A stretch of DNA of 60,341 nucleotides, the filler included, from Globobulimina sp. (taxonomy: Eukaryota), in assembly GCA_003354225.1 (NCBI GenBank). It is 13 parts of 13 records of this genome, joined end to end, with 100 filler letters (N's around TTAATTAATTAA, not from the genome) between each part and the next. Parts side by side here need not be neighbours in the genome. Positions count along the whole stretch, not along the records: positions 9,307 to 13,858 come from PIVH01001127.1; 12 more parts are not named here. The stretch is one strand, 5' to 3'. The translations under genes were made by a program, and so were the position numbers. The notes beneath the pieces are model-generated. The model was given only the letters and a program-made list of their open reading frames with translations. It ran no database searches and had not been told where the DNA came from. Position 1 is the stretch's first letter, and each line of letters opens with the position of its first letter. Shown here piece by piece: positions 6,598 to 14,031 of this stretch.

Positions 6598-6661
6598 GGT
6601 TAAAACTGTTTTTTTTTCTCACTGTTGAACATTCAGATTGCTCTCATCAGTGTCAGTCAAT

Positions 6662-8866
6662 ATGACAACGCTACTTTCCACTCTCAATTATAGAATGACT
6701 GCAAAGGTAAAAACATTATTATTTGTGGTGATGGTGATTGTGTTAATCCTAATATCGCGAGAATATGAAGGTATACAGGAATTGATAAATCTGCCCACAG
6801 CCACTGTGCCGATGCATGAAAGCACACAAAATGTGACACCTAATTCATATAAACCAATATCACCAGTAACATCAGTGCCGTCATTATGGAATTTTTATTT
6901 ATTGAAACTGGAAACATCATCAAAATGTTGTTGTTTTAGTAAAGAAATCTTTTTGTTGTTGTATTATTTGGAGAATCATCCAAAACGATCACTGAATATA
7001 ACAAAGAATACATTGTTTATAATTGCTTATTATGGTGAATTCAATTCAAACCATCAGATATTTGCAGAGAGTGAAACGAAGAAAGTAATGAATGTGAAAA
7101 AATGTAATAATCTACAAAGGGTAAAACAGAGTGGTTATAAAGAGTACATTTCATTATTTAGGAAATTGAAGTTAAACCAAAGCATTTCAAATAATTCTAC
7201 AAAATTATTGCTGTTTACCTATAATCTGAACACATTGTCGCTGTTTGATGGAAATGAATGGCCACTCGATATTGGCAGAATATCATACTACATCACCATC
7301 GATGATGTTAATTACAGATCCAATGTCGACATCAGTTTACCAACAGCGACAGTCAACAATTTCTATAATATTAATAATGTGCGTCGTGATAATGTATCAA
7401 TATTAATGTATAAATATAACATATCATTCCAAGGTCAGATACGGCCAACTTATGGCAGTCATTGGTTTAATAACAAACCAGCGGAATTAGAAAGAAATAG
7501 TGATAGTGACAAAGTATACAATTTGACGCAATTAAAGGTAAAAAATAGAATTTCCAATATTAGATTCAAAATGTTTAAATATTTATATTTAAATGTAAAT
7601 AAAGAAAATCTGAATGATGATTATCGGATTTATATGAAAGAGAGCAAAAATGCAAAATATATTTATAATTTCACAGATCTAATGATCAACAGTCATTTTT
7701 GTTTGTTAATTGGAGGCGACGCACCGTGGAGTTATAGGTTAATGGAAATATTATCAGCGGGATGTGTGCCAATATATATTTATAATGGATGGATCTTACC
7801 ATTTAATAATATTATCAATTGGAACAAATATATTGTATCCATTCCGGAGTTGTACATAAATTATCTCATAAAATATAACTTGTTCAACAATCTGACCACA
7901 TTTAAAATGAATGTCATTTACAATAATAAACAATATATTGATAATATGGACTTATATTACAATAATTCAATAATGAAATGGCATCAAAGTATTTTACATT
8001 TATATGAAAAACACTTTATTAATTATTCGGTTATTACAGAGAATCTGCTTGAAAACATATTGTATGCAGATAATAATAATACAATTTATGCAATGCCACT
8101 GCCAGATATTCCGGATATGCCTGAAATGTCTCATATTTTTACGATCGGATTTCAAGCTTCGGGAACAATGTCATTTCATTCCTTTTTTGAGTTAAATAAC
8201 ATTTCATCCATTCATTGGGATGATAATAATTTATTTGCTGGTATGACAACTAATTATTTTCAACATAAATCCAAAGTGTTGTCAAAGTATGATAATTATA
8301 CTCATATTACTGATTTTGGTGTTGGTCCGATATTAAATCAACAATTCTCTCAATACAATTTGATACATTACAACAACACCAATATTAATGCCACAGAAGC
8401 AGTTCCAGTTTGGTATAAAATATTAGATGAACAATATCCAGGTTCAAAATATATATTAAATGTGCGTCCCATAAATGAATGGTTAATAAGTAGATGGATT
8501 TTGCTTTTCCAATCGAAAAGATTCCAAACTACTGATTTTTATAAGCATGGATTGTATAAAAGATATACAAAGAAAGAAATCTTTGCTTTATGGAGAAAGG
8601 ATTGGTACAATTATAATTGTAATGTGATTGAATATTTTGTGAATAACAATAAAAATAAACAATTATTAGTTTTCGACATTAAGAATGATAATATTTCCAA
8701 ACTTATTCATTTTTTTAAAGATTGGATAGATTTAAATGCAACAAAATGGAGCAACACAAATCATCATACAACAAATGAAAAAGTAACAAATATAAAAATA
8801 TCTGACAATAGCAATAGCACAGAAATTGATAATTTAAAAAGGGAATGTGGTTTTGCTCAGATTTAA
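6662..8866 (+). CDS. Type II membrane exostosin/GT47 glycosyltransferase fused to a sulfotransferase-like domain
   Basis: N-terminal TM anchor. GT47 motif SHFCLLIGGDAPWSYRLMEILSAGCVPIYIYNGWILPF. C-terminal IFTIGFQASGTMSFHSFF (PAPS-binding loop-like) and LDEQYPGSKYILNVRPINEWLIS. Confidence 0.8.
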   Translation: MTTLLSTLNYRMTAKVKTLLFVVMVIVLILISREYEGIQELINLPTATVPMHESTQNVTPNSYKPISPVTSVPSLWNFYLLKLETSSKCCCFSKEIFLLLYYLENHPKRSLNITKNTLFIIAYYGEFNSNHQIFAESETKKVMNVKKCNNLQRVKQSGYKEYISLFRKLKLNQSISNNSTKLLLFTYNLNTLSLFDGNEWPLDIGRISYYITIDDVNYRSNVDISLPTATVNNFYNINNVRRDNVSILMYKYNISFQGQIRPTYGSHWFNNKPAELERNSDSDKVYNLTQLKVKNRISNIRFKMFKYLYLNVNKENLNDDYRIYMKESKNAKYIYNFTDLMINSHFCLLIGGDAPWSYRLMEILSAGCVPIYIYNGWILPFNNIINWNKYIVSIPELYINYLIKYNLFNNLTTFKMNVIYNNKQYIDNMDLYYNNSIMKWHQSILHLYEKHFINYSVITENLLENILYADNNNTIYAMPLPDIPDMPEMSHIFTIGFQASGTMSFHSFFELNNISSIHWDDNNLFAGMTTNYFQHKSKVLSKYDNYTHITDFGVGPILNQQFSQYNLIHYNNTNINATEAVPVWYKILDEQYPGSKYILNVRPINEWLISRWILLFQSKRFQTTDFYKHGLYKRYTKKEIFALWRKDWYNYNCNVIEYFVNNNKNKQLLVFDIKNDNISKLIHFFKDWIDLNATKWSNTNHHTTNEKVTNIKISDNSNSTEIDNLKRECGFAQI

Positions 8867-9442
8867 TGCATATTAATATTTTACACTGACATCGATCATC
8901 TTGAAAATGTTGAAAAATTATTTAAATATTTATATATAACGAATTATATTTTGTTTCCAGATGAACAACAACCTTTTTGTTGTGCCATATTTACTCTCGG
9001 ATTGTTAGAGCCAATCTTGAACTGTCGATCTTAAAAAATCATTGTTTTTTCTCATATAGGTTGTTATTTTTTTACCGTTGTGGATTATACAGTTTACTAA
9101 TAGTCAGTAATAGAAACGTTACTGAAATATATTATGTAATTTACCAAAAAAAACGCAGTAATTTAGAGATAACCGATCAAAAGTACCTCTTTACATCGTC
9201 TAGCACNNNNNNNNNNNNNNNNNNNNNNNNNNNNNNNNNNNNNNNNNNNNTTAATTAATTAANNNNNNNNNNNNNNNNNNNNNNNNNNNNNNNNNNNNNN
9301 NNNNNNGTGTGTTTTTATGATAGTTTAGAACCATACTATAACAATTCTGTGCGTTAAATGAATTGTTCTGGTGCACATCACAGATAGAGGGCCATGTAAA
9401 CTTTAAGGTTTTCTTTTTTCAAAGTCGCTTTTAATTTTGCAA

Positions 9443-12400
9443 ATGAGAGCAGAAACAAAACAAACTGATTCCAATCCTTTTGATAATATAAATTGGAACA
9501 TTAAAATTTCTGCATAAGTCCAGTCAATCAATGTATAAATTCCCAATGTACTGCGCCTCTACATATTGGTTATAAACACAAAAGAAAGAAACCAAACAGT
9601 AAAAAGGCGCATAGCATAAATCTGGATATGAGACGCAAAATATTTGAGGTTTATATTTGACATATCCTCTACATATTTATCCTAATACATATCCTATCAT
9701 ATCCTGTCTATATTTGACATATTTATTATAATATAATATCTTTAATTCCTATCTATTTGTATTATATACAAATAATAACATACAAATAATAACATATTGC
9801 TTTTTATATATTATGTGAGGCTCAAAATATATTCGTAAGCCACAGCCATAGATTTTGTCAAGATTGCCATAAAATTGCTGCCAATAATATCAGTGATCTT
9901 AGATTCAACACCGAAACAATTAAATATCCGTCGTTTGATTGTTTGGATAATTTTTTATCATCAAACCATGAAATTGCAACTGAAACACCAATATGTGAAC
10001 AGGAATCCATTCATGATATTCCTGAAAGCGCCAAACCTCGCAATAAATATCGTAAACGCAAAGGATATGCGTCATTGGATTATAATAAATTATCAGACGC
10101 AGAAATTCAAATCTGTACCGGTTTTAATTTAACTCAGTTGAATCAAATTGTGACCAAAGCGAATGATGAGTTCCTTTCGAGCTATAAGCTTGATTTATTT
10201 AAATTATTTGTTACTTTGACTGTTTGGAGGCATAATTTATCGTATGATATGCAGCAATATTGTTTGGGTTCAGGAGCAAAAGTTCCATTGGAAATATAAT
10301 AAATAATTTTATTGAAAATATGACTGAATATTATGTTCCACATTTTATTGGCTTTCCGGCATGGGATGCAAACAGAATTGACTCTGAAAATCCACATTTT
10401 GTTGATATATTATTTCCCGATATCCGTATTGGTGGTGTTGGTGATGCCACATACATATATTCAGAGAAACCACAAAGAAACTATCAATATCAAAAAAAAA
10501 TATATAGTAATTACAAAAAAAGACATCTTATTAAAATACATGTTATTTGCAATCCCGTTGGGAAGATAATATTAGTTGATGGTCCATTTGATAGTAATGA
10601 TCATAATGGAGATGATAAAATATGGGATTCCCTCATATGTAATTTTAATACAGACACTGAGCATGATATCCATAAAATATTTACTAAAGGTCCGGATGGT
10701 CATCATTTCGTTAACGATCGGGGTTATATGGGATCCAACACACAAGGAATATATTCCATGGAATTCCCAGCGAAATGGTTAAAAGAGACTACCAAACAAT
10801 TAGCAACATTTGAAGCCAACGCTGGAAGGTAAGTTTTGTCCAACTAAATCTTTTGCAAAAAACTATTTTTCCCCGTAACAAAAATGAGCGGAGATCAAAT
10901 TGTTTTCCGTTTGTAAACAAGTATTATTTTTAAACTTATAGATGTGTGACAAAAATCCGTAATGTTATTGAGCGTGTGTTCGCAAGGATTAAAAAATGGA
11001 CAATTTTACGACATACACATTCTATCCAGTATGATCCAGTAAAAATTGTCAATATATTCAAAATAATATCAGCAATGTTAAATCATGTTGCACCAAACCT
11101 ATATTCTGAAGAAAATATCAAAACTATGGAGGTTGATGCACATACTGTAATGAACAGAAAAAATTTGAGACATGACATTGCAGTTAAAGAGGCAGCGGAT
11201 AACAGAGGCTGGCATCAAATAAAACACTGGAATAAGTTGGATGAATTACTTGACACACATGGCATTAAACTCCTCGATATGCCAGCTTTCGACTTATTTA
11301 ATCTCCGCCGTTATTCGACATCGCCATATTTATTGAATGCGTGTAAATATTATGCATTTCATTCAAAAAATATTAGATTTCAATACAATTGTAAATATCC
11401 TAACACCATTAGAGTTTGGGGTGTGACTAGCAAATATTCCAGAAATGATGTAAGCAGCACTAAAGATTATACGCATTATCACCGATTCGATTCACATAAT
11501 TTAGAAGATTCAATATCGTTTTGTGTCTGTCCCAATGGCACGAAAACATCAGGTTGTTGCGTGCATTGCATAGCAAGTTTATATGTTTTGTACCATAAAA
11601 TTCAGAATTTACCACTTCCACCAATCAATCAACGTACCATTGAATATCAAAATCATTGCACTGATTTATATTCATTTGAAGTGCAACACCAGCAATATTT
11701 GGGAGAATTTTCAGATGTCAACCTTGAAGACGCTGACGATATCTCCATCCAATCCAAATTAGAACAATATGGATTGCCACTCACATGTGAAATTGAGCAG
11801 CATGGAGCGTTAACATGTTTACATCATAGTCACCGATTATTTTTAATAGCTGATCCACAGACACCTTCACAATTAATATGGACTACAACAGTACCAACTA
11901 TACAACAAACTTTAATTCAACAAAATATGCCCTGGACATCACAATTGCCACTAGCACAAATTATCAACAGTGCTTCCTGTACTGAGTCCAACAATGAGTC
12001 GAAAAATAATTCTAACAACGAGTCCGACAATAATTCTAACAATCATTCCAACAATCATTCCAACAATGATTCCAACATTGATTCCAACAATGATTCCAAC
12101 AATGATTGCAGCATGAACTATCTCAATCAACCAAACAATGAGTCCACGAATCATCATGTTTATAATACTAGAAGCCATACACAACAAACTCAGACATATT
12201 CAAACAGAAACACAACTCAAAATGCGACACAAAAAAATAATTGCAATCGGACATTCACTAAAAATAGTAGGCGCAGACGCGCACGGAAACGAAGACGACA
12301 ATTTGCATCAAACAGAAGTTCGCGTTCAGCATTGCAGTCAAATTCAATCACAACCTCACTTCGCTCAACAGTTGTCAGTCTGCATAATATTAATCCAGAA

Positions 12401-13744
12401 AGTTATCCACCAACAGGAATTATAAACGTTTGGAATGCTTGTTATATCAATGCAATATTACAAAGCATATATTTCAATGCACCAGTTAGGAATGGATATA
12501 TTAATCGCTACAAATCATTGCCTAATATTTCATTGTCATATAATTGTGGCTATCTCTTTGAACGTATGCTCAATGTACGGGCTAATTATGAGTTAAATAA
12601 AAATAAACGTCGTAGCCAACCAGCACCAATTGTATCTAACCAAAAAGTTGTCAATTGTCTCAATAATAATTTTGGTGGCGATGTAGCATATAATTCTGAG
12701 GATTGCTGGTTATTTTATGTTCAATTTACAAACAAATTAATTGAAGAAGGCCAGCACTGGAGTACTCAAACAGGAAATACATTCAATTGGAATAAAATTT
12801 GTAAAGTGGTGATTGATGGCATAATTAGTGATCTAAACAATTCTGGATTACAAGAACTGCGCTCCGCTGTCAATTATACTGAAGCAGATATTATACCTAA
12901 TATAGATTTGGATATTCCATTTGATAATCTCAATGATAATTTATTATATTTTATTCGTGAGATAGAAACACATAAAGATCACATTACTGGGTATAAACTT
13001 GGAAATGATGGAGAAATTGAGTTGGATGATAATAACCAACCTACGCCAATTGAAGAACGACTTTCATATAAATATTATCCGTGTTTTATATCATTGCCAT
13101 ATTTGCTAATTATTAGGTTAAAAAGATATTCAATTGATCCAGAAACAGGAGCCAGAAAGAAAGATAATAAACGTGTTTATTTTCAAAACAATTTTAATTT
13201 CAACCCATATGTTTATCAAAATAATGGTGTATTATCTGCACCAAATGATAAGTTTCCACATTATCCATTGGATGGGCCATATAAATATAAATTAAAGTTT
13301 GTTATTTGTCATTCTGGAGACGGGAATATTCAACAATTTGCAGGTGCAAATAATTCCCGTCGAATGCGTAGCAATAAAAATAAAGCAGGCGGTCATTATG
13401 TTTGTTTTGTGATTCTTGAAAGTGGTTCGTTTTTATGTAATGATGATTGGATTCGAAACGCACCACAAAATTATTATGATTATATGTATGGAGGTACTGG
13501 TGAGGGAAGTGCATATATATTGGGATATTGCCAGGAAAATATAGTAATTGATCCTTTGTTTAGTATGGATAATATACTAAATATAGCAAATATTGATATT
13601 GATACTACAAACACAAATAATATGGATGCGAATAGTGATGTTGTTGAGGATGCAAATTCGGATATTGATTCAGATGATAATAATTCCATACAGACACATC
13701 CTTATAATCTCAGATCAAGCAATAAGCGACGTAGACTTAATTGA
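9443..13744 (+). CDS. Transposase (HTH + DDE) - SWIM zinc finger - USP/C19 deubiquitinase fusion, about 1340 aa reconstructed; introns 9649-9819 and 10829-10941; two 1-nt frameshifts (about 9503-9506 and 10251)
   Basis: HTH-like region ICTGFNLTQL..LTVWRHNLSYDM/AAILFG. DDE residues in GVGDATYIY, FVNDRGY and (across intron 2) EANAGRCVTKIRNVIERVFARIKKW. SWIM motif CVCPNGTKTSGCCVHC. USP Cys box GIINVWNACYINAILQ, LPYLLIIRLKRY, His box YKLKFVICHSG..GGHYVCFV, CNDDWI and SAYILGY. Confidence 0.85.
11985..12110 (+). repeat. 12-bp coding minisatellite (TCCAACAATGAT-like) encoding an Asn/Ser-rich linker
   Basis: About ten degenerate units encode ESNNESKNNSNNESDNNSNNHSNNHSNNDSNIDSNNDSNND between the SWIM and USP domains. 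Confidence 0.85.
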
Positions 13745-14031
13745 TTTTGTCATGGCTGTTTGTATTTGTTTCTCGAAAACCTCAAATTGACTCTACTTCA
13801 TGGCCTCATTTGAAAGTCTTGTGCACCAGCAAAAGATCTAAGTCTTATTCTGGTAATGNNNNNNNNNNNNNNNNNNNNNNNNNNNNNNNNNNNNNNNNNN
13901 NNTTAATTAATTAANNNNNNNNNNNNNNNNNNNNNNNNNNNNNNNNNNNNNNNNNNNNGGGTTTGTATGAGTATGCATAAGGGTGGATTTTATTTCAGAC
14001 GGTTACTGTTGAGAGTACTTTTAAAAATCTG

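Follow-up and report, generated by a model that had tools for sequence, protein, structure and literature searches.

The stretch of DNA analysed here, referred to as the window, comprises 60,341 nucleotides, filler included, of the Globobulimina sp. assembly GCA_003354225.1, and one of its pieces carries a gene that encodes a DDE_Tnp_4-type transposase, a SWIM finger and a ubiquitin-specific protease (USP, peptidase C19) as one polypeptide. Twelve linkers of the form N44-TTAATTAATTAA-N44 (4554-55795) divide the window into 13 contigs of about 4.55 kb each; the contig with the fusion gene occupies 9307-13858 (4552 nt, PIVH01001127.1) and has such a linker on either side. Because it is flanked by linkers on both sides, the pieces beside it provide no genomic context; the flanking pieces are unrelated, so that terminal inverted repeats (TIRs), target-site duplications (TSDs), a second open reading frame (ORF) and the insertion site could be sought within the contig only.

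All features of the gene lie on the plus strand. Its last exon (10942-13744) is part of a stop-to-stop ORF at 10934-13744 of 936 uninterrupted codons (per 936 codons, 0 stops in frame vs 38 and 127 in the two other frames) and encodes, in this order, the DDE Glu motif RNVIER, a helical middle region, the SWIM finger, a low-complexity linker, the USP and a tail that ends in a TGA stop. Intron 2 (10829-10941, 113 nt, GT..AG) separates it from the exon at 9820-10828, which was delimited with a hidden Markov model (HMM) of the family and with Pfam and encodes a second Cys knuckle, an HTH-like region and the N-terminal two thirds of DDE_Tnp_4; further upstream lie a putative intron 1 (9649-9819, 171 nt, GT..AG) and an exon piece for an N-terminal Cys-knuckle (zinc-ribbon-like) region (9505-9648). 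Relatives were collected by searching 1.84 billion representatives with the fusion protein, which gave 101 matches, 27 of them scanned with Pfam, and the family HMM was built from nine full-length relatives. This HMM tiles the contig colinearly in four ORF pieces: positions 18-55 on ORF 9505-9657 (E 0.003), 55-173 on ORF 9793-10296 (E 1e-10), 173-354 on ORF 10248-10829 (E 1e-52) and 354-596 on 10934-13741 (E 5e-61), the second and third piece, both on exon 9820-10828, being in different frames. Position 55 ends the first match and starts the second, and an intron at about 9649-9819 is suggested by the GT..AG ends together with the colinear pieces; likewise, the match stops at position 354 before intron 2 and restarts at 354 after it.

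The transposase core is recognised by DDE_Tnp_4 (PF13359) on ORF 10248-10832 (31.7 bits vs a cutoff of 24.8; 35-87 bits in relatives) over profile positions 2-88, and at the start of the long exon 47 aa continue the profile at 114-158 (E 0.001, 19.1 bits); the domain is therefore split by intron 10829-10941. The catalytic triad (D at 10443-5, D at 10716-8 and E at 10970-2) lies within conserved motifs, GVGDATYIY, FVNDRGYMG and RNVIERVF, that align with the family consensus. The DDE_Tnp_4 match, the DDE triad and an HTH_Tnp_4-like region in relatives are features of PIF/Harbinger and ISL2EU transposases, from which the fusion protein differs by its additional SWIM finger and USP; an assignment to the ISL2EU branch is our presumption. 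Three relatives (P0001, P0029 and P0086) also score on PF01609. No second Myb/SANT-like ORF was found on the 4.55-kb contig, on which the ORFs outside the transposase frames are at most 85 aa long on both strands. The gene is thus not a classical two-gene Harbinger, and a second ORF may lie beyond the contig ends.

The SWIM finger (11513-11590) has the signature CxCx9CxH, formed by C197, C199, C209 and H211 at 11522-11566. Its C, C, G, C and H hardly vary in an alignment of 51 family sequences, 9 of which match SWIM at E<=0.01, and a CxCxnCxH signature is present in 65 of 102 retrieved proteins. In the fusion protein SWIM/PF04434 stays below its cutoff (13.9-16.1 bits vs 19.6), and at the homologous site the relatives P0086 (20.1) and P0077 (21.3) pass it. 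An AlphaFold2 (AF2) model of exon residues 4-256, covering the C-terminal part of the DDE domain (DDE-C) and the SWIM finger, is confident, with a predicted local distance difference test (pLDDT) of 87.1 and a predicted template modelling score (pTM) of 0.79. Foldseek returned no match for it at E<=0.001. Among 48,161 chains its best structural match is the SWIM region of ZSWIM8 (PDB 9rwz chain M; Z 7.7, root-mean-square deviation 3.0 A, 94 residues), followed at Z 4.4 by the next row, and the SWIM protein Shu2 is also among the matches listed. Model residues 112-222 superpose on ZSWIM8 112-213, and both have CxCxnCxH; the two differ in that identity is 16% and the protein context unrelated. 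With Z below 8, this comparison with a predicted model lends support without being decisive.

The USP/peptidase C19 domain (12413-13528) comprises a Cys box, a His box and Asp837/838 and is covered by the full UCH profile (PF00443, positions 1-254 of 254, aa 494-865, E 1.7e-19, 70.9 bits). The catalytic positions are Asn498 (oxyanion), Cys503 (12440-2), His821 (13394-6) and Asp837/838, and the segments INVWNACYINAILQ (Cys box), AGGHYVCFV and CNDDW align with USP47, with the relative P0002 and with a clade of related USPs. The Cys box is kept in all five clade sequences that span it, and the GHY His and the Asp are kept in C-terminal fragments. A PDB sequence search with the USP retrieved USP47, USP12 and USP46 (E 3e-4 to 9e-4). 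These enzymes and USP7 are the best matches by PDB sequence and Foldseek search and have the same layout of Cys box and His box; unlike them, with which identity is only 15-22% over the aligned parts, the clade has a segment N.N.YVY..G....N..YPHY..GPY.Y.L ahead of the His box, and the fusion USP lacks the second CxxC pair of the fingers. The initial annotation had already placed intron 10829-10941 before the Glu motif, a SWIM finger at about 11522-11570 and a complete USP with Cys, His and Asn/Asp positions in the same uninterrupted exon as the catalytic Glu, and all of this agrees with the present analysis. Its forecast that Pfam would recognise these domains on the reconstructed protein holds for DDE_Tnp_4 and UCH and not for the sub-threshold SWIM.

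Eighty-two of the 101 matches align best to the transposase/SWIM part and 19 to the USP (or linker plus USP) part. The closest named relatives are from the foraminifera Nonionella stella and Bolivina argentea (41-68% identity); they include P0015 (62%), P0007 (46%) and P0013 (44%) for the transposase part and P0003 (68%), P0026, P0030 and P0038 for the USP part. These foraminiferal relatives are EukProt entries, which we take to be transcriptomes; a protein of a parasitoid wasp belongs to an outlying clade of the family. One relative is P0002, a protein of 1120 aa from a different source (7.9-kb contig), which has the same order DDE_Tnp_4-SWIM-USP. Pfam places DDE_Tnp_4 at 268-435 (E 1.8e-10) and UCH at 732-1052 (E 8.4e-32); identity to the fusion protein is 37% over 240 aa of DDE-C/SWIM and 25% over 393 aa covering the entire USP, and the two proteins share the clade-specific segment NDK(F/Y)PHY...G.Y.Y.LK. 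A tree built on the transposase region (42 rows, 221 columns) places P0002 as sister to the fusion protein plus P0004 (SH-aLRT support 86); this grouping belongs to a 12-row clade (support 99) and stands apart from a USP-less group (support 96).

The C-terminal tail YNLRSSNKRRRLN and stop (13703-13744) is common to the USP-less members P0025, P0014 and P0044. The C-terminus that follows the USP, QTHPYNLRSSNKRRRLN, matches the C-termini of the USP-less, SWIM-bearing P0025 (QTHNTHYNLRSNNKRRK...) and P0014 (HRYNLRSRKKRKTD), and P0044, ending in NKRRRLNS, has only the terminal basic NKRRRLN part in common with the fusion protein. Since the tail motif of USP-less relatives stands after the USP, the USP has the SWIM finger on one side and the tail proper to the family on the other; an erroneous join to some foreign gene is improbable, because it would not give a USP inside the transposase tail. 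The initial annotation had argued that the fusion is no artefact of gene-model joining, and with a single ORF and with Pfam and family-HMM matches across the exon the in-frame DDE_Tnp_4-SWIM-USP fusion is confirmed as genuine. At the level of sequence comparison, three things are established, namely the architecture, its presence in a diverged relative as well and the clade-wide retention of the USP catalytic residues.

Some relatives depart from this architecture. P0064 and P0077 have a PHD finger (PF00628) after the SWIM finger (26.0 bits, above the 24-bit cutoff, and 21.3, below it), and it occupies the tail position where the fusion protein has the USP. P0026 (Bolivina argentea) and P0091 (1647 aa) carry a USP of the same clade behind N-terminal regions without transposase similarity or Pfam match; these two proteins could represent the host donor of the USP or other carriers. 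A USP was also looked for in P0047 (601 aa), in which the SWIM finger and a basic cluster are followed, in the order of a USP, by a Cys-box-like NLSNTLCHINASVNLLLQS and LDLPYFLFVSL. None of the tests for a USP in this protein was significant (Pfam E 0.25, BLASTP E 0.05, hhalign probability 1%), and P0047 may carry a degenerate USP.

It is proposed that the locus is a copy of a single-ORF PIF/Harbinger-type (DDE_Tnp_4) DNA transposon with a complete USP inserted in the tail of its transposase, all in one polypeptide, and we regard this as probable; the host would be AT-rich and most likely foraminiferal. Several observations weigh against it, and each is given here with the alternative that it would favour. 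The first is that, among the 101 matches, 27 of them scanned with Pfam, both domains were recognised in only one other protein, P0002. The next come from the sequencing data. The fusion contig is contained in one sequencing run only, X1, probably the source sample, and no RNA run is listed for it; two runs of the same sample, X2 and X3, contain next to none of its words, so that content or coverage must be very unlike between the three libraries. Contigs independently rebuilt from run X1 (Logan contigs) were compared with the window, and all figures on them cover the contigs listed. One of 2044 nt (10359-12402) includes intron 2 and then the exon from the Glu motif through the SWIM finger to the linker, ending 10 nt before the USP homology; the next piece listed starts at 12455, and none of the Logan contigs listed bridges 12403-12455. 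Depth is 14.4 upstream of this junction and about 25 downstream, the contigs have a T/G variant at 12403, and one of them joins at 12444 out of 201 nt of unlike sequence. The X1 contigs listed neither bridge nor break the SWIM-USP junction, and among them the USP part is seen in at least one further context.

These data could indicate a chimeric contig, in which a common repeat near 12403-12455 led the assembly to fuse two separate genes, one for a transposase and one for a USP. The Logan contigs break exactly there, depth roughly doubles past the junction, one contig arrives at 12444 from unrelated upstream sequence, and G+C at third codon positions is 0.28 in the DDE-C/SWIM part vs 0.20 in the USP part. 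Such a join would nevertheless have to leave the frame open for 936 codons without a stop and place a transposase-family tail motif downstream of the USP, and P0002 independently has the same domain order with both halves related and groups with the fusion protein in the transposase tree; the contig that joins at 12444 would be without the Cys box and so looks like a truncated or rearranged copy, not a native gene. Because P0002 repeats the architecture and the family tail follows the USP, an assembly chimera is considered very unlikely. Read support across the SWIM-USP junction, set beforehand as a test of the fusion, neither confirmed nor refuted it among the X1 contigs listed; P0002 and the tail argue against a chimera.

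Further points against a functional transposon with an active USP concern the 5' part of the gene and the USP model. In the window the reading frame breaks by 1 nt at 10245/6, a TAA in frame (9502-4) stands three codons ahead of the first conserved Cys, and the 5' end of this copy may be broken or misassembled. The originally proposed 1339-aa protein starting at ATG 9443 could not be reproduced, as this ATG and the first homologous exon that follows it are in different frames and the frame breaks at 10245/6. The Logan contigs have an additional C behind 10245 (depth 16.3 of 16.3), which restores the frame; because they lack the break, it is probably an error of the window assembly. In 15.4 of 20.1 Logan depth a 19-nt insertion absent from the window contig follows 9499, so that in the 5' region either the assemblies or the copies differ. 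This majority variant brings ATG 9443 into frame, with the TAA then three codons before the first conserved Cys. A ciliate-type code (TAA/TAG = Gln), prompted by the TAA at 9502, was rejected, as neither TAA nor TAG occurs among the 936 codons of the ORF. For the USP the AF2 model is weak (mean pLDDT 58.6, pTM 0.40), and the Foldseek matches listed for it are all USP catalytic domains, USP47 and USP7 first (E from 4e-10, TM 0.24-0.36), in agreement with the PDB sequence search.

The fusion could accordingly be real and this copy, or the USP module generally, be non-functional, a decaying copy or a pseudo-enzyme. The frame break, the TAA and a start codon that is not established would fit this, as would the low AF2 confidence and a USP too divergent for any relative in a word-based search (0 of 5097 candidates scored with the USP part, and P0002 residues 380-1120 retrieved P0002 itself only). 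The Logan contigs without the frame break, the intact 2.8-kb exon and the catalytic Asn, Cys, His and Asp, all present and kept across the clade, speak against decay, and we consider it unlikely.

The last objection concerns mobility. Local alignment of the contig ends did not rise above shuffles, and no demonstrable TIR or TSD was found on the 4.55-kb contig. Candidate subterminal inverted-repeat blocks, found post hoc, lie at 9368-9396 (a 10-mer at 9368-9377 and a 7-mer at 9390-9396) and at 13799-13829 (13820-13829 pairing with 9368-9377, and 13799-13805 with 9390-9396). This two-block pattern, first noticed by eye, was reached in 4 of 3000 shuffles and is a candidate, not an established TIR; no identical trinucleotide flanks it, and the true termini could be beyond the contig. 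Forty-nine Logan contigs of X1 were aligned to the window, 24 of them at least 99% identical, 15 at 95-99%, 6 at 90-95% and 4 under 90%, so that 25 of the 49 are under 99%. The status as a mobile element, as claimed by the initial annotation, is only partly shown: the intact DDE triad and the diverged copies in X1 support it, whereas a TIR/TSD is missing from the contig and the 5' end is broken or misassembled.

The missing TIRs and TSDs would also be expected of an immobile, transposase-derived host protein whose DDE/SWIM part directs the USP to DNA or chromatin. Such a domesticated gene would accord with the introns, with relatives in foraminiferal EukProt datasets (presumably transcriptomic) and with USP catalytic residues kept between forms only 25% identical. 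It is harder to reconcile with the conservation of all three DDE residues, with several diverged variants in one run and with a frame break and premature stop in the 5' part of this copy; the same tail in USP-less close relatives and the patchy, fragmentary occurrence of the family across sources are a better fit to a proliferating element. Domestication is therefore judged improbable, and the intact DDE triad, the patchy distribution across sources and the existence of close relatives with and without a USP favour the transposon.

Within the last exon two further features precede the USP. A coding repeat of 12-nt period (11966-12145, repeat family D2) encodes an Asn/Ser/Asp/His-rich linker; a higher-depth Logan contig that aligns at 11966-12145 lacks 4 nt at 12074 and 1 nt at 12081 and is probably unrelated low-complexity sequence. 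A basic cluster, RRRRARKRRRQ in the ORF translation (12269-12301), resembles a nuclear-localisation signal. Elsewhere in the window, whose 13 contigs are apparently ordered by size, nothing similar to either half of the gene was found on the other 12 contigs at the protein or DNA level; a neighbouring contig has an open frame of 745 aa (6629-8866), part of which, in our estimation, resembles an exostosin-type glycosyltransferase motif. Searches of other collections gave no usable match for the fusion protein or P0002 in the ESM Atlas, no relative confirmed by USP or transposase alignment among JGI metagenome contigs and no relative among IMG/VR viral contigs.

The fusion of a transposase with a USP, initially put forward as new, has a printed precedent. 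In one sentence, Bao, Kapitonov and Jurka 2010 (PMC2836005) describe Trichomonas vaginalis XP_001314237.1 as a pfam01609 transposase plus Peptidase C19 and credit it to Gladyshev and Arkhipova 2009, so that novelty is lower than claimed. Compared by description, XP_001314237.1 likewise combines an IS4/IS5-type DDE transposase domain with a USP/C19 ubiquitin hydrolase in a protist; its host is a parabasalid, and the present one probably a foraminifer. It is not recognisable among the 101 relatives. Among other elements (PMC2836005, PMC9741609), Ulp1 (C48) occurs in Ginger1 and MULEs, OTU in Ginger1 and Helitrons, and VTD in Helentrons. These also place a papain-like deubiquitinase or deSUMOylase, usually C-terminal, in a transposase or Rep ORF; in contrast, the protease here is of the USP/C19 class, its carrier is DDE_Tnp_4 and the domain lies inside the tail instead of at its end. 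Both papers give the function of the carried proteases in transposition as unknown and propose that they guard transposition proteins from degradation or modulate repair (PMC2836005, PMC9741609). For transposase plus peptidase C19 the Ginger paper was the sole relevant one found, and literature searches for DDE_Tnp_4 plus UCH, Harbinger plus deubiquitinase and ISL2EU plus SWIM or ubiquitin gave nothing relevant. No description of the foraminiferal family, of the SWIM-USP arrangement or of functional work was found in the literature, supplementary files lying outside the search.

In the proposed reading the transposase runs from N-terminal Cys knuckles through an HTH-like region, the DDE core, a helical region and the SWIM finger to a long low-complexity tail and a conserved basic motif, and a USP-class deubiquitinase was probably inserted into this tail between the SWIM finger and the terminal basic motif. 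Basic clusters at 12269-12301 and in the tail may act as nuclear-localisation signals. The USP would be an active thiol isopeptidase, and it would plausibly work in cis or locally. Our first choice, at somewhat below even chances, is that the USP may shield the transposase or the transpososome from ubiquitin-dependent turnover. Such protection is the role proposed for the VTD and OTU domains of Helitrons in PMC9741609. As a second choice, held with less confidence, it may deubiquitinate chromatin or repair factors where the DNA is broken for excision and insertion. A repair- or chromatin-type role was suggested for Ulp1/OTU by Bao et al. (PMC2836005). A chromatin-directed role is mildly favoured, because P0064 and P0077 have a PHD finger where the tail of the fusion protein has the USP. 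The anti-silencing or self-deubiquitinating role suggested in the initial annotation is likewise hypothetical.

A broader possibility, which we hold only tentatively and consider rather doubtful, is that a Harbinger-type foraminiferal lineage gained an active USP independently of Trichomonas. On this view the USP would be a portable module against ubiquitin, passed from one mobile element to another, that counters ubiquitin-based host control of transposition, with histone H2A/H2B ubiquitin or transposase turnover as candidate targets, and the tail would be a slot for chromatin-directed accessories. The portable module draws on the same-clade USP behind unrelated N-termini in P0026 and P0091, and the slot in the tail on the PHD finger of other family members.

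Transposons repeatedly gain proteases of the ubiquitin/SUMO system (Ulp1, OTU and VTD), and their part in transposition has not been demonstrated by anyone. Given the one-sentence precedent in PMC2836005, the value of the present gene is that of a better-documented, testable example and not of a new principle. It adds a USP-class case, kept within the transposase polypeptide across two forms that are only 25-37% identical, and it belongs to one of the first DNA-transposon families described in foraminifera, whose genomes are barely known. Its close relatives without a USP constitute a natural with/without comparison for asking whether deubiquitination protects the transposase or prepares chromatin.

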